Counted from the first letter of the stretch, positions 44,815 to 64,000 are shown. The stretch: 64,000 nucleotides of DNA from Pseudomonadota bacterium (GCA_018661145.1 JABJIU010000001.1:2176-66175); one strand, 5' to 3'. Notes: generated by a model not told the origin, from the letters alone. Translations and numbers: made by a program.

Positions 44815-47394
44815 TTGGAATCAACAAAAAATACCGCCTATATAGAACGATTTAAGGCTGCGTTATCTCCGGGAGCAATCGCGCTTATCTCGCTACTACT
44901 TCTTGGTTACGTGGGTCTGGGGGAGACCCTTAGATCGTACCCCGGTCTGCAACACGACCGATTGGTCGCGCAGGGCGAAGTCGTGCAAACAGAGATGAAT
45001 ACGTTTTTGCAGGCAGGCCTACCGCTTCGGCAGTTTGTGGGGTTTGAAACCTTAGCGGCTCCTCTACTAGATTCCGACTCGCTCTTGCAGAGTAATGTTG
45101 TCAGCGATCTACGTGGGTCTATTCTATTTTCTGCTTCTGCGCCGGGTCGAGATCCTGTTTCGGCACTACGAGATCAGCCTTTGCCTATTGGGGAAACAAA
45201 AACTGGTTTATCTCCTGCTTTCACGATTCAGGAGACGCCGCGAAACTATATCGCTGTCCTTCCCTTAGAAAACAAATTCGAAACAGTGGGTTTTCTCTCA
45301 ATTACCCTGGACAAAGTCTCAATTTTATCCGCCGTTAAAGAAAAATTTGGAATGGTGTTCGGTATCATGCTGGCGTTAGCGGCCGTCATTTTACTCGGAG
45401 CGTTCTTTCTGAACGGATTTCGGGCTTCCGTATCCGGACGCTGGCTTCAGCCGTTTTTCGCAGCGATATTCATAATCGCTGCGGGCGTTGTTACCACCGT
45501 GACGATACAGATTTACTCCCAGGGTGTTCAGGCGAAGGCATCAGCCTTGGCAGATTCATTATCGACTCGAGTGGGTACCGTCCTTGATCTTGGACTCGAT
45601 CTGGAAGACATTAGCGGCGTTAATCAAGCATTGATTGATTACCATCAGCGTAACCCAGAGCTTGATTCAGTTGCGCTGACCTTTAACGGGGAGGTTGCTT
45701 ACCATAGCAATAAGGAATTAATTGGTGGACAGTGGTCGGAGCCCCAAAATTGCTTTGTTTACCAGCAAGCGTTAGTGCCCGAGGGCCAAAACTCTTCCAA
45801 AGATCAGGTCAGTTTAGTTCTGGCAGTGCCCAAAAGTGTCGTCTACTCGCGTGTTGCGAGAAACGTAAAAAACTTTGCTGTTCTTTTTCTCGCAACGGTG
45901 TTTCTAACGGCGCTGTTTTTCAAGTTAAGCGTTGTGCTAGAGGAGCGTAAAAGAAAGAAAGAGATGTCGGAAACTGCCACGGCAGTCACTGATGCCAGCG
46001 GCCTCGAGGCGCTGCGCGAGTTGGAGCACGATAGCGATAGCTCAAAAGCCTACCGGCTTGCGCTTTTGACGCCACTTTTCTTCGTTGCGGTTTTTCTAGA
46101 GGCGATGAACGCCTCCTTCTTGCCGCAGTTGATTCAGGAGGTTTCCGTCTTATCGGGGCTCGGAGCCGGGTTCACGGCGCAGGTTTTCATACTATTTTTT
46201 CTTGCTTTTGCGCTGACTCTTGTTCCAGCAGGTAAATTTGCAGAGATTCACGGCTCTCGTGGCCTTCTGCTCACTGGGAGCATCCTCACTGCTTCCTCTC
46301 AGATTTTGCTAACGTTCATCGAGACTACTAGCGTTTGGGTTCAGGCATATTTCGGAGCCGGCGCTATCGAGATTCTATGTTTGGCCAGAGTAGTCTCTGG
46401 AATAGGCCAGGGTTTTCTACTTATCGGTACACAGGCGTTCATTTTAGAGAATACACCAGAAAGTCGTCGCACCCAGGGCAACAACATCATCGTTTACGGA
46501 TATAACGGTGGCATTATTTCCGGCGCCGCGATTGGCGCTTTGCTTGCTGTCTACCTGGGATATGCGGGCGTGTTCCTGGTTGCGGGAATAATTGGCTTTC
46601 TATGCGCAATCTATGTCTTTGTCCTGCTTCCATCGGGCCACTCGAGCAACAAAACCTCGGAACTTGAAGAGGGTAGCTCTGCTCAACGGGGAAGCTTGAA
46701 GCAATACTTCTCTGGATATCTCGATATATTTAAAATTTTCGGAGATCTCAAGTTCCTGAATACAATAATCGCGGTTGGCATTCCCACTAAGGCGATTCTG
46801 ACAGGGGTTACTATCTTTGCGATTCCTCTCATACTTTCGGCGCTCGATTATGCGCCGGATGATATCGGTCAGATCATAATGATCTATGGCCTAGGGGTAG
46901 TGCTTGCCTCTCACTTTATTTCGAAGCACGTTGACAGAACTGGCTCGAGCACTAACGTGCTCTTCGGGGGGGTGATTCTGAGCTCAATCGGATTGATGTT
47001 GATCGGAGTAATGCTGGAAGCGCCGACGACCGTCAGCGAATTTCTCAACCTTGATCTAGAGCGCTTTTCCGGCTGGATTGAGGTAACAGCGTTAATTGTT
47101 GGAGTTGCGCTATTGGGCGTGGCTCATGGGTTTATTAATGCCCCTGTGGTTACTCACGTAGCAGAAGCCAAGGTCGTTCAACAGATAGGACTTGCTCCCT
47201 CAACAGCAATTTATCGGTTTTTGGAGCGACTAGGTCATGTAGCGGGTCCATTAATTGTCGCGCAGTTTCTACTATGGTTCGGGATGCAGCCAAGTACGTT
47301 ACTGTACCTTGCCCTAGTGGTCCTCATTCTGGGTCTCATTTTCCGGATAGTCTCTTTCTCGCATTCGTCCTCAGCAAGAGAACGCGCAGCTTAG
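44815..47394 (+). CDS. Fusion membrane protein: N-terminal 4-TM module with two extracytoplasmic domains + C-terminal MFS transporter
   Basis: 859 aa. TM1, a domain of about 140 aa, TM2-TM3, a domain of about 120 aa and TM4, then a charged linker (EERKRKKEMSE...). About 12 MFS-type TM helices follow, with a VSGIGQG-type loop. Confidence 0.6.
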   Translation: MESTKNTAYIERFKAALSPGAIALISLLLLGYVGLGETLRSYPGLQHDRLVAQGEVVQTEMNTFLQAGLPLRQFVGFETLAAPLLDSDSLLQSNVVSDLRGSILFSASAPGRDPVSALRDQPLPIGETKTGLSPAFTIQETPRNYIAVLPLENKFETVGFLSITLDKVSILSAVKEKFGMVFGIMLALAAVILLGAFFLNGFRASVSGRWLQPFFAAIFIIAAGVVTTVTIQIYSQGVQAKASALADSLSTRVGTVLDLGLDLEDISGVNQALIDYHQRNPELDSVALTFNGEVAYHSNKELIGGQWSEPQNCFVYQQALVPEGQNSSKDQVSLVLAVPKSVVYSRVARNVKNFAVLFLATVFLTALFFKLSVVLEERKRKKEMSETATAVTDASGLEALRELEHDSDSSKAYRLALLTPLFFVAVFLEAMNASFLPQLIQEVSVLSGLGAGFTAQVFILFFLAFALTLVPAGKFAEIHGSRGLLLTGSILTASSQILLTFIETTSVWVQAYFGAGAIEILCLARVVSGIGQGFLLIGTQAFILENTPESRRTQGNNIIVYGYNGGIISGAAIGALLAVYLGYAGVFLVAGIIGFLCAIYVFVLLPSGHSSNKTSELEEGSSAQRGSLKQYFSGYLDIFKIFGDLKFLNTIIAVGIPTKAILTGVTIFAIPLILSALDYAPDDIGQIIMIYGLGVVLASHFISKHVDRTGSSTNVLFGGVILSSIGLMLIGVMLEAPTTVSEFLNLDLERFSGWIEVTALIVGVALLGVAHGFINAPVVTHVAEAKVVQQIGLAPSTAIYRFLERLGHVAGPLIVAQFLLWFGMQPSTLLYLALVVLILGLIFRIVSFSHSSSARERAA

Positions 47395-47468
47395 AGTCCG
47401 TAACATTGAGAAATGATGTGATAGCGATTAGCAAAAAGCTCTCATCCTCACTGAAAAAAGGAAATCGT

Positions 47469-48725
47469 ATGACGTTTTTTAATCCGCGCGGGAATCTTAG
47501 AACGGGAGCAAAGATTAATTTACTGCTCGCCTGTGTATTGAGTTTTGCACCTTTTAACTTAATCACAAGCACAGCTCTCGCAGATTCTGGGAGCGCTCGA
47601 GTTGCTATTTCATCCTGGTTGGAGGTTGATTCCGACGTGACCCAAGCATGGGATGCGCGTGAGATTTCGTCCGATAGAGTCCGCTTCATCATGGCGGATG
47701 ACGTCGAGTCCGCAGACAACTCGTCATCAAGAGCGGCTGACAAAAAAGTCCTCTTTATCTTCCCAAAGAAATCCTCAGCTTACAACACCGCTTTAAGCAC
47801 AAGTCTCAGGGTGTTCGCTGATCGCGGATTATTTCCTGAGGTCGAGATTGTATTGATGGAAAAGGATGCCTCAAAGCGGCTGGAAGTGATTGCCGCCGCA
47901 GAAACGTCTAACGTTGACCTTATCTTCGCAACTGGCTCTTCCTCTGCGAAGTTTGCCTATAAAAATTATTGGGGCGGTAAGATTCCGGTAGTCACGATAT
48001 GCGCTAAGGATCCGGTGATGTTGGGCCAGATGCCCGACTATGCTTCCGGAAGTGGTAGCAATATGGCATTTACCTCCCTAAATGTTCCCGTTGGCCTACA
48101 GGGCAAGTATTTAAAGGAACTAAAGCCCGGACTCAAGAACGTTGCTGTGCTTTTCGCGAACGAAAACAAGAGCGCTATTAAAACTCAGTATGAACCGCTG
48201 GTTAAATGGGGCGAAGAAAACGGAATTCAGATTCTGGGTGTAGGCGTGAGTAAGAAAGAAGCGGCGGTCGAATTATCAAAAATGGTGCCAGAGGCTGTTG
48301 CGCAGATGCGCTCTTCGGACCCGTCCTTGGAGGAGAGTATCTTCTGGATTACTGGGAGTACGTCCGTCTTTAAAGAAATAGCAACGATTAATGCCCATTC
48401 GAGCACTGTCCCAGTCTTGAGCGTGGTTCCGGATGTCGTGCAAGCCGGGAGCGATACTGCTGTTATGTCCATCGGTGTTGGTTTCGACAGCAACGCAAAG
48501 CTCGCCGCAATTTACGGCGTAAATTTGCTTACGGGAAAAGTTAACGTAAGCGACCTCCCCGTTGGCCTCGTCGAGCCGCCGGATATAGCAATAAGCTTTC
48601 TGAAGTCACGAGATATTGGAATGAAAGTCCCGTTTTCTTTTGTAGAACGTGCTTCAACGATCTACGGAAACACGGGAGAGGTAGCTCGCAGCAAAGGGAA
48701 GAACGTCGTCGTAAGCGTAAATTAG
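47469..48725 (+). CDS. Periplasmic binding protein of the ABC_sub_bind (PF04392-like) type, orphan
   Basis: ATG at 47469 with AAGGA upstream. Signal peptide is present. The body (KKVLFIFPKKSSAYN...DLIFATGSSSAKFA...KNVAVLFANENKSAIKTQYE) resembles the ABC_sub_bind family. No ABC permease or ATPase genes are adjacent. Confidence 0.5.
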   Translation: MTFFNPRGNLRTGAKINLLLACVLSFAPFNLITSTALADSGSARVAISSWLEVDSDVTQAWDAREISSDRVRFIMADDVESADNSSSRAADKKVLFIFPKKSSAYNTALSTSLRVFADRGLFPEVEIVLMEKDASKRLEVIAAAETSNVDLIFATGSSSAKFAYKNYWGGKIPVVTICAKDPVMLGQMPDYASGSGSNMAFTSLNVPVGLQGKYLKELKPGLKNVAVLFANENKSAIKTQYEPLVKWGEENGIQILGVGVSKKEAAVELSKMVPEAVAQMRSSDPSLEESIFWITGSTSVFKEIATINAHSSTVPVLSVVPDVVQAGSDTAVMSIGVGFDSNAKLAAIYGVNLLTGKVNVSDLPVGLVEPPDIAISFLKSRDIGMKVPFSFVERASTIYGNTGEVARSKGKNVVVSVN

Positions 48726-52873: not shown

Positions 52874-53004
52874 AGGTCGTCGATAGGCGATGCTAGATCG
52901 CATGAGAGAAATATCTAGAGCCTAATCCCAGATTGGATTTTTTCGGCATTAGGGCAGTTCGCCCAGTGCCGTGGAACTTTTTATTTACAACAGGAGATAA
53001 ACAG

Positions 53005-53445
53005 ATGGCAAAAGGTTTGGACAGCGCGGTAGCGCCTAAGGAGCGGATCAATATCGTCTATCAGCCAGCTACAGGTGGCCGTAAAGAGCAGATTGAATTA
53101 CCGCTAAAGGTGATGGTCCTCGGAGACTTTCATGGCCGAAAAGATTCTCGTCTTTCGGACCGAAGTGCGTCTGAAGTAACTTCGCCATCCGTCGACAGTG
53201 TGATGGCATCTATGGATGTTGCAACCGAATACTCAGTCCCTAATACCCTTACTGGAAAAGGTGAGGTAAAAGTCAGTCTCGAGTTCAATAGTATGAAAGA
53301 CTTGAGTCCGTCTGCGGTAATCGATCAAATCCCGGAACTCAAAAAGATGCTGGGGCTACGTGATGCACTAAAAGCTCTACGCGCTCCGATAGGCAACTCC
53401 TCGGACTTCAGAAAGCTAATCGACGAGAAAGTCTCTAGCAAATAG
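53005..53445 (+). CDS. tssB: T6SS contractile sheath small subunit
   Basis: AGGAGA lies 8 nt upstream of ATG at 53005. PKERINIVYQPATGG...IELPLKVMVLGDFHGR and C-terminal IPELKKMLGLRDALKAL are typical of TssB/VipA. Confidence 0.85.
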   Translation: MAKGLDSAVAPKERINIVYQPATGGRKEQIELPLKVMVLGDFHGRKDSRLSDRSASEVTSPSVDSVMASMDVATEYSVPNTLTGKGEVKVSLEFNSMKDLSPSAVIDQIPELKKMLGLRDALKALRAPIGNSSDFRKLIDEKVSSK

Positions 53446-53480
53446 TCAACTAAGAAAACAGATTCAATAGGATTTTTATT

Positions 53481-54932
53481 ATGGTTAAGACAGCTGTTGT
53501 GGATGAGGTATTAGGGGCTTCCGGTCTGGCTCTTCCTGATGATTCGGTTGACTCGGCAAAAGAGGCAGTCGTCACTTTAATTGAGCGCGCATCGGCCCAG
53601 GAAAATGGGGCGGCTAGGGTAGACCGTCGTTTGGTAGACGCCGTCATCGCGGAGCTCGATCAGAAAATCAGTGAGCAGATGGATCAAGTACTGCATCATG
53701 AATCGTTCAAGTCGATCGAATCGGCGTGGCGTCAGCTAGATTTTCTTGTTTCTAGGACAAATTTCCGAGAAAACATCAAGCTACAGGTCTTGGATGTCAC
53801 AAAAGAGGAGCTCGCTGAGGATTTTGGGGATGCTTCTGAAATTAGTGACTCAAGTCTCCACAGAATGGTCTATACGGATGAGTACGGTCAGTTCGGAGGC
53901 GAGCCGGTTGGTGCACTGGTCGGCGCCTACGAATTCGGTCCAGGTGAAAAGGACTGCGAATTGCTTAAGTGTATGGCGAATGTTGCAGGCATGGCCCATG
54001 CGCCATTTATTGCTGCAGCTAGCTCCTCTTTCTTGGGTCTGGAGTCCTGGGGTGATCTGTACAAACTCAAAGACCTCGAGTCTGTGTTTGATTCCCCAAC
54101 ATATAGAACGTGGAACGGGCTACGGGATGTGGAAGACTCGCGTAACGTGTGCCTCACGTTGCCAAGGTTTTTATTGCGCGCACCTTACGGTCCGCAGAAT
54201 GAGATCGCTGATTTTGACTATGAAGAGAATGCGGTGGAAGGGGATGACTTGTGTTGGGGTAATGCGGCATTTGCTTTGGCCACGCGAGTGGTTGATTCCT
54301 TCGCCAAGTACCGCTGGTGTCCAAACATCATCGGCCCGAAAAGCGGTGGTGCAGTTACGGGTCTCCCGTCCTACGTATACGACCGAGACGGTAAGTTTTT
54401 TGTAGCAGGTCCTGTCGAGATTCCAATCTCAGACCGGCGCGAATATGAGTTTAGCAACTTGGGCTTCGCGCCATTGACGTTGCGTAAGGGGACTGACAAC
54501 GCGTCGTTCTTCTCAGCAAACTCAATTCAGAAAACCAAATTTTTTGGATCAGACGCAGAAGCTAAGCAAGCAGAATTGAACTACAAACTCGGGACGCAGC
54601 TGCCGTATCTCTTCGTCGTCACTCGATTGGCCCACTACTTAAAAGTGCTTCAGAGAGAAAACTTAGGAGGTTGGGTATCACGCGGCGAAATAGAGGCGGA
54701 GTTGAACCGCTGGATTAGAAGTTACGTCGCTGACCAGGAAAATGTGCCATCGGCAATGCGGAGCTCGAGACCCTTACGAAACGCAAAAATAGCGGTTTCC
54801 GATATTCCCTCGAGTGCAGGTTGGTTTGCAATTAGCATGGAAGTAACACCGCACTTTAAGTTTATGGGAGCGAACTTCACATTATCACTTACGGGTTCGG
54901 TCGAGGCTGGAGAAGCAGCAGCAGAAGCGTAG
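53481..54932 (+). CDS. tssC: T6SS contractile sheath large subunit
   Basis: 483 aa. HHESFKSIESAWRQLDFLV, DEYGQFGGEPVGALVGAYEFG, HAPFIAAAS, LTLPRFLLRAPYG and the C-terminal PHFKF block are typical of TssC/VipB. Confidence 0.9.
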   Translation: MVKTAVVDEVLGASGLALPDDSVDSAKEAVVTLIERASAQENGAARVDRRLVDAVIAELDQKISEQMDQVLHHESFKSIESAWRQLDFLVSRTNFRENIKLQVLDVTKEELAEDFGDASEISDSSLHRMVYTDEYGQFGGEPVGALVGAYEFGPGEKDCELLKCMANVAGMAHAPFIAAASSSFLGLESWGDLYKLKDLESVFDSPTYRTWNGLRDVEDSRNVCLTLPRFLLRAPYGPQNEIADFDYEENAVEGDDLCWGNAAFALATRVVDSFAKYRWCPNIIGPKSGGAVTGLPSYVYDRDGKFFVAGPVEIPISDRREYEFSNLGFAPLTLRKGTDNASFFSANSIQKTKFFGSDAEAKQAELNYKLGTQLPYLFVVTRLAHYLKVLQRENLGGWVSRGEIEAELNRWIRSYVADQENVPSAMRSSRPLRNAKIAVSDIPSSAGWFAISMEVTPHFKFMGANFTLSLTGSVEAGEAAAEA

Positions 54933-55077: not shown

Positions 55078-55578
55078 TTGGCTTACAACATTTATTTGGA
55101 AATAGCGGATATTTCTGACGGTGCAAACACAGAAGATAGTATCGGCCAATTCGCCGTAGCGGAACATGAAGATGAAATATCTGTTCTCGAGTTCCATTGG
55201 GGAATGTATGTCCCAACGGATCAGCTTTCAGGTCAGATCACGGGAAACCGTCGGCACCAGCATCTAACGATTAAGAAGCACCTCGACGCTTCATCGCCGC
55301 TGCTAGCGCAGGCCTTAACCAATCCGACGCCTTTAGAATGTACATTCGCATTCTTTAGGCCTGGGGATATCGGAGGAGATGGTGACCCCGAGCCGTTTTA
55401 TGAAATCGTTATTGAGGGAGCGAAAGTGACGAATATTGAAGTATCGTCGCCTAATATCCTAGATCCCGCAAACGATAATATCCCTGCTTATGAATTAGTT
55501 ACTTTCGCCTACAACAAAGTAACGGCATCTCACGAGCCTGGTGGAACGGAGTTTGAGGATACGTGGAGCGGCGAATAA
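55078..55578 (+). CDS. hcp: T6SS inner tube protein Hcp
   Basis: TTG start with AAGGAGA upstream. 166 aa. MAYNIYLEI...ISVLEFHWGM...KHLDASSPLLAQALTN...VTFAYNKV follows the Hcp pattern. Confidence 0.8.
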   Translation: MAYNIYLEIADISDGANTEDSIGQFAVAEHEDEISVLEFHWGMYVPTDQLSGQITGNRRHQHLTIKKHLDASSPLLAQALTNPTPLECTFAFFRPGDIGGDGDPEPFYEIVIEGAKVTNIEVSSPNILDPANDNIPAYELVTFAYNKVTASHEPGGTEFEDTWSGE

Positions 55579-55777: not shown

Positions 55778-56425
55778 ATGCATCTTAAATTTCAATCGGT
55801 ATTGGTGATGATAATCGTCATCGGTCTTGCTGGATGCATCACGCGCCCAGTCGAGGTTACGAAGCCATTAAAGCTGAGCCAAGTGACGGCGGGTAATTTA
55901 CCGGAGCAAGCTGGGGCGCTCACCGTTAACATTGTAGCGGACGACGATCTAAACTGGTTTGGCAATACAAATAACGGATTGATGATAGGATTCCTCCAGG
56001 CCAGTAGTCGGGGCATTATTTCGGAAATTGGAAGAAGCTCGCTTGGTCTTCAGAAGATTCTAGAAGGGGATCTTGATGATCCGGCGATAATAAGTATTGA
56101 TACTTTCAGGGTTCAACCAGGATCACGATCAACGATAGTTTTGACTCGTGGCGAGATGTCGAAGCATTTGGCGATCGTTGCCGGCTACTATGACTTAAAG
56201 CCCAATAAATCACTGCTGGTGTTTGATACATCGATTTTTCTAGATCGAACTTATCATGCAGACCCGTTCGCGCTGTTTCACAACGATACCCCAATGTATG
56301 CGCCCTATGAGCTAATCGATCTCAAATTGGGGTCGGAGGAGATAGATGTAAACGAAACTACATCCACTCTCTTTTGGCTTGAGGCGCCCGGCCTGTTGGG
56401 TCGGTTTCTTTACAACGTTCCTTGA
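55778..56425 (+). CDS. tssJ: Outer-membrane lipoprotein, probable T6SS TssJ
   Basis: Lipobox VIGLAGC. Its position immediately upstream of tssK-tssL-tssM fits TssJ. At 215 aa it is larger than typical TssJ. Confidence 0.55.
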   Translation: MHLKFQSVLVMIIVIGLAGCITRPVEVTKPLKLSQVTAGNLPEQAGALTVNIVADDDLNWFGNTNNGLMIGFLQASSRGIISEIGRSSLGLQKILEGDLDDPAIISIDTFRVQPGSRSTIVLTRGEMSKHLAIVAGYYDLKPNKSLLVFDTSIFLDRTYHADPFALFHNDTPMYAPYELIDLKLGSEEIDVNETTSTLFWLEAPGLLGRFLYNVP

Positions 56426-56544: not shown

Positions 56545-57912
56545 ATGAATTATGGAAGGCAACCGAAATGGTACTCAGGGCAGTTTCTGGAGTCCCAACA
56601 TCTTCAGTACCTGACCAATCATGTAGCGCAACTGCAAGGGGAGGCTTTAAAGATCGTACCCAACGAGACCTGGGGCTTCGCTCAATTAGAGCTAGACAAT
56701 AGCCTGCTTCAGGCGGGAACACTGCGTATCAAGGCAATGACCGCGGTTACGCAGGATGGTACGTTTGTGGAGTTCCCCGGGAACTGCAAGGCGCCGGATC
56801 TCCAATTTTCCGACCAGTGGACAGATTCAGCTAGGCCACTGGAGGTCTATCTCGGTCTTAGGCGCTATAACCCCTCTGCTCCCAACGTAGCGGCTGGCGA
56901 CAGCGGTGGGCGGAGCAGCAACAGTGCTCCACTTGAGTTACTCGACTTCAACGACGCCGACCGATCCGTGAAGGTTGACCTAATCGAATACAACATTCGA
57001 TTGTTCACAAATTATGATGTAGACGCTGCAAGTGATTACGAGTTGTTACATGTTGCGCGTCTCACCATGGATGATAGCGTTGTTCAACATGATCCTCAGT
57101 TTTCTTTCCCAACTAGTAATTTACGAGGTTCTGATGTGTTGGAGTCGCTTGCCCAGCAGTTTTATCAACAGGTGATGGCTACGGCACGGGGGTTGGAGGA
57201 GATTAAAAATACGTTCAACGGTAGTTCAATGGAGTACGGCAGGCGCGAGGCACGGTTGATGGCTGGTATGCAAGCGTTGAGTGAATGCACCGCAAGTATG
57301 AGGCATCAGATGGGCAACCCTTTCGTGCATCCCGCCGCCCTTTTTGGAGCCGTGAATATTCTGATCTCCAGGCTTAGTGCGTTTTCAGACCTCATCGACC
57401 TTACCGGGAGTTATCGTGGCGGGTCTTCAGAGTTACTTAATTATGATCATGGGAATCCTGCGGCGTGCTTCCGGAGAGCGCTCGAGTTAATTCCAATCCT
57501 CCTTGATGAGCTGACGCCTACCCCCAGGCTTGTCGTGCCATTCGTGAATGTCGGTGGAGAGCGCCTATATACCGAAGTACCATCTCATTTTTTCGGGGAC
57601 AACGTTGATTTCTTTCTAATGATCGAAAGTTCGGACGAGGAAAACTCATGGGTTCCAGGTTTTCAGTCCAATGTTCGAATAGCGGCTGAGAGCGAAATGA
57701 AAGATCTGATTCGCTTCTCACTATCTGGCCTGCCATGCCAGTTTTCACCATCTCGGCCCGCCGGTGCGCCAATTCGAGAGAAGGCATTCTTTTTTAAATT
57801 GAACACTCATTCAAAGGTTTGGAGAACAATTGCGGATGAGCGAGACATCGCGATTGAGTGGAAGGAAATTCCGGCTGAGGTCTCAGTCGAGCTCGTCGCG
57901 GTTCAGAAGTAG
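56545..57912 (+). CDS. tssK: T6SS baseplate subunit TssK
   Basis: The N-terminus KWYSGQFLESQHLQYL matches the TssK W.eG.fL.PQHfQ signature. 455 aa. Confidence 0.8.
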   Translation: MNYGRQPKWYSGQFLESQHLQYLTNHVAQLQGEALKIVPNETWGFAQLELDNSLLQAGTLRIKAMTAVTQDGTFVEFPGNCKAPDLQFSDQWTDSARPLEVYLGLRRYNPSAPNVAAGDSGGRSSNSAPLELLDFNDADRSVKVDLIEYNIRLFTNYDVDAASDYELLHVARLTMDDSVVQHDPQFSFPTSNLRGSDVLESLAQQFYQQVMATARGLEEIKNTFNGSSMEYGRREARLMAGMQALSECTASMRHQMGNPFVHPAALFGAVNILISRLSAFSDLIDLTGSYRGGSSELLNYDHGNPAACFRRALELIPILLDELTPTPRLVVPFVNVGGERLYTEVPSHFFGDNVDFFLMIESSDEENSWVPGFQSNVRIAAESEMKDLIRFSLSGLPCQFSPSRPAGAPIREKAFFFKLNTHSKVWRTIADERDIAIEWKEIPAEVSVELVAVQK

Positions 57913-57924
57913 GAAAAGATAAAA

Positions 57925-58698
57925 ATGTTGCTTATCGAATGTTTCCATCCGGTACTCAGTCTTGTAGAGAGCCTTCAACGTGATGCGGCGGAGCCCGCTG
58001 TGGCTGGTGATCTGGAACGGCGCTGCACGGATGCGTTCGAGCGTTCTGAGACCGAGGCTAAGGATGCCGGGCACGGAATATTAACGATTGAGGCGGCTAA
58101 GTTTTCTTTCGCGGTCCTCATCGACGAGCTCTTGATGTCGGAAGAAGGCCGCCTGGGTGGGGATTGGAAAAAGCACCTGCTTCAAGAAAAATTTTTTGGA
58201 ACGCGAACTGGCGGTGATTGGATGTTTGCAGAGATGCAGAAGGTGCTTGACCCGCTCCCCGAGAACTTTGATATTCAATTGGTATACCTAAGTTGCTTAG
58301 ACACAGGTTTGGTTGCGGCACTCCACAAAGATCTCGCGTCTGTCGATGAAGTAAAACATCGTCTTCGGGAATCAGTCCATCTACTCCGGCGTGCTGGGTC
58401 TAATGACCGAGTGCTGTGTCCTAGCGCATATCGTGGTTTGGGACAACGTGGAACGGTGAATCGAGCCAAGCGACGCGGAGGGCTCTTCACAGCAAACCTT
58501 GTCGGGGCCCTGGTAGTCCTAGCCTTCTTTATTTACTACTCAAGCTCGATAACGCAGGTTGTTGATTCAACCGCGACGCACGGCGTCCTTCAAACAGGTC
58601 CAATGGATGATTCGGTAAGTGGGCACGCGCAAAACGAATTTGGGGCCTGGGTTGACGGGGCTTCCGCCTGGATTGGGGGAGTTTTCGGTAGGGAATAG
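57925..58698 (+). CDS. tssL: T6SS membrane-complex subunit TssL (DotU family), no OmpA/peptidoglycan-binding extension
   Basis: DotU-like cytosolic domain (AAKFSFAVLIDELLM...LLQEKFFGTRTGGDWMF), a single C-terminal TM and a short periplasmic tail. Confidence 0.75.
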   Translation: MLLIECFHPVLSLVESLQRDAAEPAVAGDLERRCTDAFERSETEAKDAGHGILTIEAAKFSFAVLIDELLMSEEGRLGGDWKKHLLQEKFFGTRTGGDWMFAEMQKVLDPLPENFDIQLVYLSCLDTGLVAALHKDLASVDEVKHRLRESVHLLRRAGSNDRVLCPSAYRGLGQRGTVNRAKRRGGLFTANLVGALVVLAFFIYYSSSITQVVDSTATHGVLQTGPMDDSVSGHAQNEFGAWVDGASAWIGGVFGRE

Positions 58699-58781: not shown

Positions 58782-61700
58782 ATGAAAATTTTTAAATGGT
58801 TTTTAATCATCCTGCTGATCGCGGCGATCAGTTTAGGGATTCTTGTCGTGATGCTAGGCCTGGGTTATCCCGAACAGTCTGCGTTTCGGGCCGTAGCTTA
58901 TTTCATCCTGGCCGTAGTTGCGTTTTTCGTTTTAAGACGTCTCTTAAATCGGTGGCGAGCCAAACGCAAAGCCAAACAGCTTCTCGACGTTGAACCAAGA
59001 GAGAAATCCCTACTCGCTCGTCTTGGTTTCTCAAGAGACGGGAGTGAGGATCGTTTTCGTCAACTCCAGAAAGCTCTGCGTCGGCGAATTGGCCGCGGTG
59101 GTGAATACCAGATTCCTTGGTACGTTGAGTTTGAATGTGAATCAGGGGACTTTCGACGTTACCTGAAGCGAAATAACAATAACGCCGCGCTGGAGATCGG
59201 ACCCGACATCTCTTCAGGGTCCGCGCTCGATATTGACGTTCTTGACTCATTCCTGTGCCTCTCGTGCGGACCTGAAATCGTCAAAAGTGGGAGCGCTGGT
59301 AAGGTTTGGCGGGATCTATTGCTCGGATTAAACCGGTATCGGGAGCAGCGTCCGTTAGAAGGGGTAATAGTTTCGGCACCTGTGGGCCTGCTAATGGGTT
59401 CCGGCGATCGGCTGCACGATACTGGTCGATCTGTTAATGACTTGGTCCAGAGTGCAATCCGAGTTCTGCGTATCCAAGTACCGGTATTCTTAGTCGTTAC
59501 AGACTTGTGGCAGCTCGAGGGTTTTGAGGAATTTAGTCATCTTTTATCCGAAGGAGAACGAGGTCAAGCGTTTGGCGCAGGATTTGGCCAGGAGGATGTA
59601 CATCTCTTAAGCTCAGATGGAGGATTGCAGCGTTTCTCTGCGGACGTAATCAGCGAGCTTGGAAAGGTAATAGAGAATAAGATTGCCTTGAACGTTGCGG
59701 AAGGAAACCAAAGCGATGTTTCGACGGTTGCTCTAATTCGACTCCAGTCACAGATTTCCAGCATCGAAAAAAATCTCGGAACCCTTGTAGAGACAATTTC
59801 GGGAAGTGAATTGCAGCGGGTTCGGCCGAACTTTCGGGGAGTGTATTTTCTAAGCTTCGCGCCGCGGCAAAGTCTCCAGGACCAGCAACGTCCGACCGCA
59901 TCCGTTTTTTACCAAGAGTTAATCGACAGAATACTCCCCCAGGAAAGTGGGGCGACAACGACTCTCGAGTTCGCAGAAAGACTGTTTCGCGGGGCCCGGA
60001 GAAGGGTTTTAAATCGATTTGGGATTGCTTGGGTAGTGATCGCGCTTGTCATCGCGGTTGAAGGCTCATTAGATCTTCGGTCTTTGAATCTACTCCGTTC
60101 TGATTTTCTCGCTTTCGCCCCGACCGTTGACGCCAATTATGAAGTTAATTTAATTAAACAACTGGATCATAAAAGAGCGCTGATCGACACCATGGAGGCT
60201 GAGATCGCAGCGTATGTTGAGCCTCCAATTCCGATCCCTTGGCTGGGGATACCGAGTGACCAGACGACGGTTGAGGAGATGAAAGGGGAGTGGGCCGATC
60301 AGGCCAAGAGGCTACTGTCGATCCTCGACCAGGAGCAGTTCGATAGTGTTCGCGCAGTAAAAAGCGAATATATGTTAGCGCTGCAAAGTGAAACCCAGAG
60401 GCTGCTCACCTCTCCCGCATTGGACCCTCGACAGAATTCCGCCTTCTCAAAGCTCGGGCAAGTGATTAAAAACTCGATGGACCGGATCAATGTGATCCGC
60501 GCAATCGAGGACAAACGATCCCTGCGCGAAATCCTTGAAATGCCTAACCCATTTGGGGAGGGGTCTTCATATAACTTAACCCGGAATGACCCAGAATTAG
60601 CGGCAATGGTCTTTACGGCATTTATTTATAGCAAGGTGTGGGATAAGTACTCGAGCGAACCAGCGTCACTTTCCGAGAGGAGGGAGTTTTGGACTGCATC
60701 ATTCCAGAATCTCGTCTCAGGAATCGATCCTAAATTGACGTGGCTGCTCTATCTTGCAAATGATGAATTAATAAAGGTGAAACCCGAGGTAACTAGCGCG
60801 GACCTTTGGGGAGGCACCCCGCCCGCCATCGCGCAAATAGTTCAACCGGTGTGGAGTGATGAAGGAGTTGGATTTATTACTAGCTTCTTTAAACAAGTAC
60901 GCAAGACCGGTACTACAGGCGCATGGCTTGATGAGGCAGAAGGCGAAATACAGAAAGATTTCTTCAAACGTCGAATCCAGGTTTGGACCGATTACGCGGA
61001 GACAGTCCTGCTAGGCAACGGCCAACTGACTAATCGGGAAATGGCGCAGGGAAATATTATTCAGATGGCGTCGGCGCGTCGAAATCCTTATCGATCTGCA
61101 CTGCGGATTATCGCCGAGGAGAACCAAGAGTCTTTCTTCCCGGACCAGCGGCCAGATTGGCTAGAGTTGACTCTCTTTCACAGAAAAATTGAACTCCTTG
61201 GAGGCGATGAAGGGGGTGGTGGGCCGAGCAAAACACTGACCAAACTTGGTCTGAAAATGCTTGGTGCATTTGGTGCGGTGGGTAAGGCAGTGAGCAAGGA
61301 GGCCAAAAAAGGGGTAAAGACTAAGAAAAAACTCGATAAAGAGAAGGGAGGACCTGCCCGAGACGAACAACTTGAGAATGCGGCAAAAGAATATAAGGAT
61401 AACTACCTTCCCGCATTGGAACTGATCGCGTTTTCTGCCGACAGCCGTACGGCATCTTTTGCCACAATCACTGATCGCTTCCTATCTGGCGATGACCCAG
61501 GATCCGGTAAGACGGCATTAGCCTCGGGTTACAAGTCAATTCGCAGCCTTGAGATGATGTTAGGACTTCGGGACAAATACTCTCGTATCTATTGGGACCT
61601 CGTTTCTGCCCCGATCCATGTCAGTGAGGACTATCTTTTGGAAGAGGCCGCATGTCAGACAGACGCCCTCTGGAGAGAGGAAGTGCTGGCTGGGATGGAT

Positions 61701-62372
61701 AATGTCCCCGAAAATGCCAAGTTCTCAAAGCTATTCCAAGAGGGCGGGCTCGCATGGACTTTTCTAGATGGAAAGCTCAAACCATTTATCAAGACCAGTC
61801 CCGGGGTCGGGCTTGTCCCGCGGGAAGTCGGAAAACACACTCTTCCTCTGACCGAAACCTTTTTTGAATTCTTGTCGGCCGGCCGCCTGGGACTCCAGTC
61901 GATGCAGAATACCTATCCCACTCAGCTTTTGACCCGACCGGTGATGGTAAACAAGCAGGCATTATTAAAACCAGTGAAAACCACTATGACGCTGCTCTGT
62001 GACAATGGTAAAACGCGACAACGGTTGGTTAATCAAAACTTCTTAACTCAGGGTCAGATCGAATGGTCAAATGCATGCTCCGATTTCCGTCTTGATATAG
62101 ATTTTGGGATATTTGAGTTACGCAAGGTCTATAAAGGTCTGCGCGGTTATCCCGCATTCCTTGAAGGGTTCGAAAGCGACCGATTGCGGCTTACCAAAGA
62201 TGATTTCCCGGAGTATTCAAGAGTTTTTAAGCAACAGCGGTTGGGTTATATCGATCTAGAGTATGAAATCATAGGCAAGGATGCAGTAATCAAAGCGGCA
62301 CAGGAGCGTCCCACGAATACTCCCCCCCATATAGCAACATGTTGGCCGACCGAGGGACGAGATGCCAGTTGA
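58782..62372 (+). CDS. tssM: T6SS membrane-complex subunit TssM (IcmF family) with degenerate Walker A
   Basis: 1196 aa. Two N-terminal TMs, a cytosolic domain, a third TM at about aa 410 and a large periplasmic domain. The position of the usual PWY-x4-G-x-x-G-S-G-K-[ST] reads IPWYVEFECESGDF. Confidence 0.8.
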   Translation: MKIFKWFLIILLIAAISLGILVVMLGLGYPEQSAFRAVAYFILAVVAFFVLRRLLNRWRAKRKAKQLLDVEPREKSLLARLGFSRDGSEDRFRQLQKALRRRIGRGGEYQIPWYVEFECESGDFRRYLKRNNNNAALEIGPDISSGSALDIDVLDSFLCLSCGPEIVKSGSAGKVWRDLLLGLNRYREQRPLEGVIVSAPVGLLMGSGDRLHDTGRSVNDLVQSAIRVLRIQVPVFLVVTDLWQLEGFEEFSHLLSEGERGQAFGAGFGQEDVHLLSSDGGLQRFSADVISELGKVIENKIALNVAEGNQSDVSTVALIRLQSQISSIEKNLGTLVETISGSELQRVRPNFRGVYFLSFAPRQSLQDQQRPTASVFYQELIDRILPQESGATTTLEFAERLFRGARRRVLNRFGIAWVVIALVIAVEGSLDLRSLNLLRSDFLAFAPTVDANYEVNLIKQLDHKRALIDTMEAEIAAYVEPPIPIPWLGIPSDQTTVEEMKGEWADQAKRLLSILDQEQFDSVRAVKSEYMLALQSETQRLLTSPALDPRQNSAFSKLGQVIKNSMDRINVIRAIEDKRSLREILEMPNPFGEGSSYNLTRNDPELAAMVFTAFIYSKVWDKYSSEPASLSERREFWTASFQNLVSGIDPKLTWLLYLANDELIKVKPEVTSADLWGGTPPAIAQIVQPVWSDEGVGFITSFFKQVRKTGTTGAWLDEAEGEIQKDFFKRRIQVWTDYAETVLLGNGQLTNREMAQGNIIQMASARRNPYRSALRIIAEENQESFFPDQRPDWLELTLFHRKIELLGGDEGGGGPSKTLTKLGLKMLGAFGAVGKAVSKEAKKGVKTKKKLDKEKGGPARDEQLENAAKEYKDNYLPALELIAFSADSRTASFATITDRFLSGDDPGSGKTALASGYKSIRSLEMMLGLRDKYSRIYWDLVSAPIHVSEDYLLEEAACQTDALWREEVLAGMDNVPENAKFSKLFQEGGLAWTFLDGKLKPFIKTSPGVGLVPREVGKHTLPLTETFFEFLSAGRLGLQSMQNTYPTQLLTRPVMVNKQALLKPVKTTMTLLCDNGKTRQRLVNQNFLTQGQIEWSNACSDFRLDIDFGIFELRKVYKGLRGYPAFLEGFESDRLRLTKDDFPEYSRVFKQQRLGYIDLEYEIIGKDAVIKAAQERPTNTPPHIATCWPTEGRDAS

Positions 62373-64000
62373 TATTCCTGCGCCTTATATTCCCCCGGAT
62401 GACTGGGCGTACTCCGACGTCGACCTAGGAAACGAAAGCCGTCTAAAGGTCTTATTTGTCGGAAACTTTAGGGGAACGCTGGCTCCAATCGAAGTGCCTT
62501 TGAGTGCGCAGCACTCGGGCGAGCTGCTTGGGTTCTGGTCGCCATCAATGGACCTAGAGCTCCACCTGGACTTTTTGGGAAGTAAAGAGCGGGTCTTTGT
62601 TCGCTATCAGCCGTCTGACATCGTGTCGTTCCTGTCTCCGCTTCCCGCTTGCAGGCTCGTATCCGGCCCGCTCGATGTTCCCCATCTCAACACTGGAATA
62701 CTAAAGATTCTCGGAGGCTTACTGAGCGATTGGGAGTCGCTCCAGAGGGAAATTCGTGCAGGAATCGAAAGGGGTGGTGCCGATATTGAGGGAGTGGGAA
62801 CCCAGTTGCCGAGCGTTGCGTTGCAGAGTGTTATAGAAGGATTGCAATTATTAAAGGGGCGATCGGCTTCCGATAGCCAGCTTTTCGAGTTGGATCAGGT
62901 CTATCTCGACTTAAGCGAACTATACGAACAAGTTCAAGACGCGATCCGCCAGGACGCTGTTTTCAAGGAATTAAAGGAGTCTTGGTTAGGACTAGATCGA
63001 ATTCTTAAAGCGGGAATGAGCCATCACTTCCTTGAAATCTGGGCTCTGAATGCATCGCCCCGCGCATTGCTGAACGATTGCGATCTTGATGTGGCGAATA
63101 CAGATCTTTATTCCGCAATTTATCAGAGCGAAATAGGCCAATACGGGGGTGATCCGTTTTCCGCTGTAGTCTTAGGTTTCCCTTTTGGATTTAGCTCTGA
63201 AACCAGTGCAGTTTATAAGTACCTAGCGACAATAGGGGAGTTGGCAAGTACGCCGATGTTGCTTGATCCCGGGTTGTCCTTGTTGAAAGCCAATGATCAT
63301 TCGATCTTGGATGGGCTGGAAAATATCCGAATCGAGCTCGATAGCTCGCTGCGTAATATTTCCGCGGAGACCTGCGGTAGCTTTCTTTTCCTAACCCCCC
63401 AAAGTTCGGTGATTGCAGTGCGGCAAGCAACCGGTCTGGGCGATGGAGGTGTGAGTCGAGAGCTTGGCATCTTTGATTGTGCTGGATCGGTCGATCTCGT
63501 TATCGATCTAATTCAGACGCTAATTGATTTACGGGGCACTGTACCTGATCTTCAACAGGACGCTCTCGATTACGAGGTGCGACCCGTATATTGGTTTGGG
63601 CCCAGTACTGTCGAAACGCTCCAGAGCAATGGGATGATTTTGCCGGTGTGTGTCCACCCCCAGCGGCCATTAAAGTTCGATGGGGTGCGTCCGATTGGTG
63701 GGATTCACGGTGACACCCATAGCTCCCAGAGAGTCGATGGAATTCGGCCGCCTGAACTCGTCGGCCTCGTCCAGATCTTGCGAATATTGCATAAATTGAA
63801 AGGGTGGGCGCGAGATAATATCGGTAGCTCTATGAGCGTAAATGAGAGGGTAGCCGCGATTAATGATCAGATTGGGACTTTCGTGCTCGATACCCCAAAA
63901 CCAAGAGCGGAACTACTGCGTACTCGCCCCCTTAGTACGGGGTTTTGCGAAATTTTCGATGATCCTGACATCACTCGCGATTCATATCGTTTAACTTTTA
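62362..64000 (+). CDS. Fused TssB-like + TssC-like sheath paralogue (partial; continues past window edge)
   Basis: ATG at 62362 overlaps the tssM 3' end by 11 nt. I read 546 sense codons to the window end. The N-terminal part resembles TssB (RLKVLFVGNFRG). The rest tracks TssC motifs (ESWLGLDRIL, SEIGQYGGDPFSAVVLGFPFG, RTRPLSTGFCEIF...SYRLTF). Confidence 0.7.
   Translation, partial: MPVDIPAPYIPPDDWAYSDVDLGNESRLKVLFVGNFRGTLAPIEVPLSAQHSGELLGFWSPSMDLELHLDFLGSKERVFVRYQPSDIVSFLSPLPACRLVSGPLDVPHLNTGILKILGGLLSDWESLQREIRAGIERGGADIEGVGTQLPSVALQSVIEGLQLLKGRSASDSQLFELDQVYLDLSELYEQVQDAIRQDAVFKELKESWLGLDRILKAGMSHHFLEIWALNASPRALLNDCDLDVANTDLYSAIYQSEIGQYGGDPFSAVVLGFPFGFSSETSAVYKYLATIGELASTPMLLDPGLSLLKANDHSILDGLENIRIELDSSLRNISAETCGSFLFLTPQSSVIAVRQATGLGDGGVSRELGIFDCAGSVDLVIDLIQTLIDLRGTVPDLQQDALDYEVRPVYWFGPSTVETLQSNGMILPVCVHPQRPLKFDGVRPIGGIHGDTHSSQRVDGIRPPELVGLVQILRILHKLKGWARDNIGSSMSVNERVAAINDQIGTFVLDTPKPRAELLRTRPLSTGFCEIFDDPDITRDSYRLTF

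Follow-up and report, generated by a model that had tools for sequence, protein, structure and literature searches.

A stretch of 64,000 nucleotides from a Pseudomonadota bacterium (GCA_018661145.1, JABJIU010000001.1:2176-66175; called the window below, with positions counted from its first letter) ends inside a type VI secretion system (T6SS) gene, here designated X (62362–64000, + strand). X is a real gene in which the small and the large sheath subunit, TssB and TssC, are fused in a single diverged protein; it stands directly 3' of tssM, in a cluster that also encodes the separate pair. It is very probably a genuine, functional fused sheath paralog belonging to a recurrent dual sheath/tube cluster type, and is best explained as a member of a family of sheath paralogs made as one chain, named TssBC* here, in which it forms the branch that has diverged furthest of those known.

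Open reading frame (ORF) of X: the start codon ATG was located at 62362–62364, inside tssM, the stop codon TGA of which occupies 62370–62372, giving an overlap of 11 nt; a Shine–Dalgarno-like motif GAGG(GA) lies 5' of the ATG at 62352–62357, and the whole signal, read directly from the sequence, covers 62352–62372 (+ strand). Translation gave 546 sense codons up to base 63999, free of stops. A database protein (P0001, 566 amino acids (aa)) was 100% identical across the 546 residues in the window, so that the window edge, which cuts after residue 546, misses just 20 residues of X, and the complete protein sought in an earlier note on this DNA was recovered in this way. The start, the overlap and the number of open codons given in that note were obtained again on re-reading and translation, and the absence of X from the supplied ORF track has as its sole cause that the frame leaves the window without a stop. 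An overlap of the identical kind was found in two homologous loci (L001 and L002). The overlap may couple the translation of X to that of tssM; of the translational coupling claimed in the earlier note, the stop/start overlap was observed, whereas the coupling itself is only read from it.

TssC-like part: Pfam PF05943 (VipB, N-terminal sheath domain) matched residues 187–322 (62920–63327, + strand; contains AIYQSEIGQYGGDPF) with E 8.2e-17 and 61.6 bits, above the gathering cut-off of 27, over profile positions 11–147 of 301 only; PF18945 (VipB_2, gpW/gp25-like C-terminal sheath domain) matched residues 469–536 (63766–63969, + strand; contains the RPLS motif) with E 6.3e-6 and 26.8 bits in the window fragment, slightly below the 27-bit cut-off, and with E 1e-6 and 29.4 bits, over the cut-off, in full-length P0001. 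BLASTP against the TssC of the same cluster gave E 3e-12 at 23% identity. The NCBIfam equivalog model for TssC (TIGR03355) scored 74.6 bits against a cut-off of 271.5; judged by these profiles, X is a TssC homolog and not an equivalog or an ordinary TssC. An AlphaFold model was built from a 37-sequence alignment (predicted local distance difference test, pLDDT, 78; predicted template-modelling score, pTM, 0.83), and its top nine Foldseek matches in the PDB were all VipB/TssC chains (3j9g, 5myu, 5urx, 5n8n, 3j9o, 5urw, 5mxn, 5ojq and 9n4v; E 1e-12 to 5e-10; target-normalised template-modelling score 0.57–0.68). The predicted structure thus shows a sheath fold; the N-terminal arm, disordered in the model, is conserved in sequence and retained, as are the C-terminal strands. 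From the SW[RL]GL motif to the C-terminus X measures about 360 aa, against 388–389 in clean fusions (see below) and 397–402 in canonical TssC. On the TssC half the earlier note was therefore right, both in naming it and in calling it short: Pfam, BLASTP and structure prediction agree.

TssB-like part: an exhaustive profile search with X returned a tiny family of true relatives and, beyond it, many single chains of 560–640 aa with the domains VipA, VipB and VipB_2. hhalign of the X family against 31 such fused TssBC proteins was collinear over residues 14–562 (probability 99.9, E 4.6e-35), so that one ORF carries the TssB-like, VipB and VipB_2 parts in this order. Residues 1–150 of X alone, aligned with the VipA part of the same 31 fusions, gave a probability of 90%, E 1.5e-6 and a score of 40 over residues 14–91 (62401–62634, + strand; includes the strand motif LKVLFVGNF); the reversed control and 20 column shuffles all scored 16.5 or less. 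X also has the conserved strand LP..hLVhGDF of the VipA region, and the strands at residues 28–34, 63–71 and 74–82 of the model have pLDDT 82–93. Other searches were poorer: PF05591 (T6SS_VipA) gave no HMMER match at E up to 10 with whole X or with seven N-terminal fragments, an N-terminal profile of X gave no VipA match among PDB sequences by HMMER, hhalign against six closely related standalone TssBs reached 36% (E 4e-4) and aligned nothing but the motif, and BLASTP against the cluster's TssB aligned just LKVLFVGNFRG with LKVMVLGDFHG (E 0.075). Since the match to the fusion profile is clean while those by HMMER and to standalone TssB are poor, the label TssB-like is considered supported and is the weakest link of the assignment. 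The earlier note had placed a TssB-like region at residues of about 20–150 by comparison of motifs; the profile–profile match to the VipA part bears out the assignment, but the similarity is far weaker than the motifs had made it look.

Selection on X: comparison with the 84%-identical homolog in L002 gave a ratio of nonsynonymous to synonymous substitution rates (dN/dS) of 0.18. Taken separately, four segments, among them the TssB-like part and the linker, gave values from 0.14 to 0.19; X is under purifying selection. A single ORF of 565–571 aa was repeated on dozens of independent contigs and in lineages no more than 24–50% identical, and an X-type single ORF was present also in a branch merely 24% identical (P0008). 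It is scarcely credible, given these data together with conserved synteny and a confident structure prediction, that X is a decaying tssBC duplicate, or a tssB2 and a tssC2 joined by a sequencing error, even though its strong divergence, a TIGR03355 score far under the equivalog cut-off and the missing Pfam VipA match would suit such an origin. Pseudogene and frameshift artefact are effectively excluded by the dN/dS and by the recurrence on independent contigs, and the stop or frameshift that the earlier note had named as a possible refutation did not appear.

Relatives and downstream genes of X: homologs came, by source name, from uncultured marine Gammaproteobacteria (Arenicellales; one metagenome-assembled genome (MAG) labelled Acidiferrobacteraceae; one Tara Oceans MAG). 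In a profile scan of genome contigs for X, single-protein patterns gave no matches and the alignment-based search gave two MAG loci only. The order in L001, L002, L004 and L012 was tssB-tssC-hcp-tssJ-tssK-tssL-tssM-X-(gene of 171–195 aa)-tssE-tssF-tssG-vgrG; X thus lies directly after tssM, as seen in the window, and before the 171–195-aa gene and tssE-F-G, as seen in these four loci. Large proteins lacking Pfam matches are encoded after vgrG. The product of the 171–195-aa gene, which lies beyond the window, is designated Hcp*. It had no Pfam match in the X lineage, and its alignment with Hcp gave an hhalign probability of 95.8 (E 7e-9); alignment and position support a second Hcp gene, cryptic in the X lineage, as the putative partner of X, followed by tssE-F-G-vgrG. 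Three proteins of 707, 805 and 644 aa are encoded 3' of vgrG in L012 (L012:16918-21698; the 644-aa gene leaves the locus); the 707- and 805-aa proteins matched no Pfam family and gave weak coiled-coil-like C-terminal matches only, and the three may be effectors or further structural parts. Neither tssA nor clpV was found within reach of locus L012.

Clean fused TssBC proteins: single chains with VipA, VipB and VipB_2 were numerous in metagenomes, where they are labelled just "contractile sheath large subunit" or "ImpC". The genomic context was compared for nine of them: L015 (P0173) – tssB, tssC, hcp, tssJ, K, L, M, fused gene, hcp, tssE, F, G, vgrG, DUF2169, in an order identical to that of the X cluster; L018 (P0229) – the order of L015 with a normal tssA (ImpA_N and VasJ) in front; L016 (P0202) – the order of L015 with clpV 3' of tssC; L005 (P0012) – a variant with tssB, tssC, three hcp, tssK, L, M, fused gene, three other genes, hcp, tssE, F, G; L006 (P0028) – tssM, fused gene, hcp, tssE, F, G, vgrG; L017 (P0219) – clpV, hcp, tssJKLM, fused gene; L010 (P0024) – vgrG, DUF4123, fused gene, hcp, tssE, F, G; L014 (P0177) – a 793-aa fusion, apparently the sole sheath gene, beside tssA; L008 (P0030) – an orphan fusion with no other T6SS genes nearby. 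In all dual contexts inspected (L005, L015, L016, L018) the fused gene occupied the slot after tssM; separate tssB and tssC were present in the window, L005, L015 and L018, and tssC was seen in L016. An arrangement in which tssM is followed by a fused second sheath gene, a second hcp and then the baseplate genes thus recurs across uncultured lineages. The co-occurrence with a canonical tssBC pair, proposed as a check in the earlier note, was thereby found. tblastn of a clean fusion against 72,556 plasmids, which are those of cultured bacteria, gave 580 TssC matches, none of them covering the TssB-like N-terminus.

Several features of these loci were recorded in passing. The dual cluster L005 has three tandem hcp genes and a fourth before tssE (L005:3048-4707 and L005:14444-16303). 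The 793-aa fusion of L014 (L014:10001-12382) follows tssL-tssM-tssA and precedes hcp-tssE-F-G-vgrG, with no separate tssB or tssC in 22 kb; it grouped apart from the "second copy" fusions in a rough tree, which suggests independent fusion events. A clean 613-aa fusion stands amid housekeeping genes (RF-1, ribosomal protein S3, GrpE) in L008 and L009 (L008:4972-6813, L009:4972-6813), with an unannotated 195-aa gene 3' of it and no other recognisable T6SS gene in the available 5 kb upstream or 7–10 kb downstream. A gene for a ParA/CbiA-like ATPase lies 3' of the fused gene, immediately in L017 (L017:11739-12611) and two genes further on in L005, a hint that the apparatus may be spatially positioned. 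DUF2169-pentapeptide, DUF3540 and PAAR-like genes surround vgrG in L018 (L018:15379-21695) and L014 (L014:18770-22382); a 2026 review gives the same accessory set (TagAB/TagC/TagD) for Burkholderia T6SS-5, and the set may point to the T6SS phylogroup of these clusters.

Evolutionary rates: between L001 and L004 the identity was 76–84% for TssB, TssC and Hcp and 48–63% for TssJKLM; it was 27% for X, 42% for Hcp*, 24% for TssE, 36% for TssF and 44% for TssG. Over all pairs of dual clusters canonical TssC was 49–57% identical and the fused copy 19–41%, like TssK, TssM and TssG. The fused copy evolves at rates like those of the baseplate and the membrane complex, far faster than the canonical sheath. 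By these figures the canonical pair behaves like the main polymer, and the fused copy like a peripheral or baseplate-associated part; because its identity falls with that of TssE, TssF and TssG and not with that of the canonical sheath, X is read as a minor, baseplate-linked subunit.

Comparison with known proteins: X shares with canonical TssB/TssC (VipA/VipB; PF05591, PF05943, PF18945) the fold of the TssC body, the motifs Y..E.GQ.GG.P and RPL, the strand motif LKVLFVGNF, the N- and C-terminal arms and the setting in a T6SS cluster; it differs in being one polypeptide instead of two and an extra copy beside the normal pair, in an identity of 23–27% to its own TssC in aligned segments, in a TssB part invisible to HMMER, in a core shorter by about 40 aa with a reduced junction region, and in an evolution several times faster. 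With the clean VipA–VipB fusions of uncultured Gammaproteobacteria and Desulfobacterales (for example P0012, P0173, P0202 and P0229) it has in common the length (564–582 aa), the domain order, the slot (tssM, fused gene, hcp2-tssE-F-G) and the coexistence with separate tssB and tssC; it is, however, only about 20% identical to them, no longer gives a recognisable Pfam VipA signal, has a VipB profile match reduced by half, and its partner Hcp is cryptic.

Outside the T6SS, a sheath paralog of the Photorhabdus virulence cassette (PVC), Pvc4, is the sheath initiator and forms the initiating ring; it engages in a handshake with the gp25-like Pvc9, contacts the tube paralog Pvc5 and hands the handshake on to the main sheath (PMC12546770). 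The dual T6SS clusters resemble the extracellular contractile injection systems (eCIS) with Pvc4/Afp4 and Pvc5/Afp5 in that sheath and tube paralogs are encoded beside the major ones, near baseplate genes, and the gp25-like adaptor bound by Pvc4 (Pvc9) is a homolog of TssE. The likeness is one of analogy only; a sequence relationship to the eCIS paralogs was neither looked for nor found, and eCIS sheaths are single-chain by default. On this analogy TssBC* and Hcp* are proposed as the T6SS counterparts of Pvc4 and of Pvc5, the first tube ring, respectively.

Proposed role: the canonical, slowly evolving TssB and TssC, with the main Hcp, would build the long contractile tail, and TssBC* and Hcp*, encoded right 5' of tssE-tssF-tssG-vgrG, would form its baseplate-proximal layer. 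A TssBC* ring would dock on the gp25-like TssE and the wedge through a β-strand handshake and enclose an Hcp* ring seated on VgrG; the TssBC* ring would serve as the template on which ordinary TssBC and Hcp polymerise. X would accordingly be incorporated in the tail at its baseplate end, as a minor, sub-stoichiometric subunit. Gene position, co-variation of rates and the retained N- and C-terminal arms point to this mechanism, which we hold to be possible though somewhat short of probable; the sheath-initiating subunit that stood among the ideas of the earlier note is the reading favoured here too, with the same tentativeness. ClpV engages the free N-terminal end of VipB (TssC). A side idea is that joining the C-terminus of TssB to the N-terminus of TssC removes the free end for ClpV, which could make the subunit non-recyclable. 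Phage tails and eCIS have a dedicated first-ring layer, which the T6SS was believed to lack. That uncultured marine and sediment Proteobacteria and Desulfobacterota possess a T6SS class with a single-chain sheath-initiator ring and an Hcp-paralog first tube ring, whose fused subunit may escape ClpV and persist as a reusable baseplate seed, is a more doubtful extension.

Several points weigh against an initiator ring. The position of X in the tail is read from gene order and evolutionary rate, both of which are indirect. Hcp* gave a poor AlphaFold model (pLDDT 50) with meaningless Foldseek matches, so the call in the X lineage comes from hhalign and position only. In the well-studied T6SSs known to us the sheath starts on TssE itself and no initiator paralog is set aside for it, so that the need for one is not obvious. 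Because the fusion in L014 seems to be the sole sheath, a fused subunit as such can probably polymerise into a full tail. Finally, a rough neighbour-joining tree of the TssC parts does not decide whether X is orthologous to the clean fusions after tssM, since X sits on a long branch; hhalign scores of X against fusions of the dual type, fusions of the single type and canonical TssC do not tell orthology apart either.

The L014 fusion bears on a different reading as well, namely that TssBC* and Hcp* make a complete second sheath and tube on the same baseplate and membrane complex, so that two kinds of tail are fired, for example with other effectors or without ClpV recycling. The cluster does encode a complete spare sheath and tube pair, X keeps the N- and C-terminal handshake elements, and single chains probably build whole sheaths where, as in L014, no other sheath is apparent. 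Against this, the sheath and tube proteins that polymerise are as a rule the parts of a T6SS that change most slowly. The canonical pair is 76–90% identical where X is 27–52% and Hcp* 42–78%, so that X and Hcp* drift like accessory or baseplate proteins; some 40 aa of the TssC core are moreover missing from X, and X-lineage Hcp* lacks any Hcp Pfam match. A second tail is on balance unlikely.

Still less probable is a distal-end or assembly factor, in which TssBC* would imitate a sheath subunit and so act as cap, terminator or chaperone of the growing sheath, in place of TssA or in support of it. X resembles TssA/TagA (ImpA_N) in being non-canonical, and such a factor would contact sheath ends. 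Neither TssA nor ClpV was found by Pfam in the 52 kb of the window upstream of the cluster; the homologous X-lineage contigs, which are partial, showed no ImpA_N gene in the 10 kb that follow, and L005 and L015 showed no tssA within about 20 kb. Such absences, judged from partial contigs, are set against the lack of any ImpA_N similarity in X (no match at E up to 10) and the constant place of the fused gene beside the baseplate genes rather than tssA. The dual cluster L018 has a normal TssA (ImpA_N and VasJ) in addition to the fused copy; X as a general substitute for TssA is ruled out by the presence of both proteins there, and the capping role considered in the earlier note is weakened. The initiator ring is retained as the preferred proposal.

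Other genes of the T6SS cluster in the window (all + strand; Pfam): canonical tssB, 53005–53445 (T6SS_VipA, E 3e-43; 146 aa from ATG); canonical tssC, 53481–54932 (VipB, E 1e-113; VipB_2, E 8e-39); canonical hcp, 55078–55578 (T6SS_HCP, E 1e-22); tssJ lipoprotein, 55778–56425 (T6SS-SciN, E 4e-6, right at the cut-off); tssK, 56545–57912 (T6SS_VasE, E 3e-72); tssL (DotU), 57925–58698 (DotU, E 4e-27); tssM (IcmF-related), 58782–62372 (IcmF-related_N, E 8e-27). The separate sheath pair that the earlier note had located at 53005–54932 is thus confirmed. The mechanically called tssB ORF opens at TTG 52933 (52933–53445); the length of its homologs (146–147 aa) and the N-terminus MAKGLDS place the real start at ATG 53005. 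The 52 kb 5' of the cluster is ordinary chromosome (MttB-family methyltransferase, CcmF, poly(A) polymerase, CLC channel and others). In the region 44815–48725 only the second half of an 859-aa ORF matches MFS_1, and a 483-aa ORF without a Pfam match overlaps the end of this ORF; the gene starts in this region may have to be revised.

As described, the T6SS sheath is a polymer of TssB/TssC heterodimers that begins directly on TssE, and the list of 13–14 "core" components is taken to be complete. Neither the full-text literature searched nor the 2026 review of T6SS accessory factors was found to describe a natural TssB–TssC fusion or a T6SS cluster with a second sheath/tube pair, which is no proof of absence; "fused" sheaths in the literature matches were GFP tags. 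The remark of the earlier note that such an extra gene fits no described subtype agrees with this result, but the architecture is not unique, as the many clean fusions demonstrate. The parent system is known, as a T6SS with a sheath homolog, and the dual sheath/tube organisation with a single-chain paralog, known from MAGs only, is the new part and appears to be uncharacterised. The fused class is at present invisible because annotation pipelines call its members ordinary "sheath large subunit" or "hypothetical". A conserved single-chain sheath paralog with an Hcp paralog beside the baseplate genes would mean that the T6SS tail has one structural layer more, and would bring T6SS architecture nearer to eCIS and phage tails, in which specialised paralogs make up the first ring. 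The dual clusters offer natural test cases for how sheath polymerisation is seeded, why the T6SS sheath is split into two chains, and whether fusion of the TssB C-terminus to the TssC N-terminus, the ClpV region, blocks recycling.

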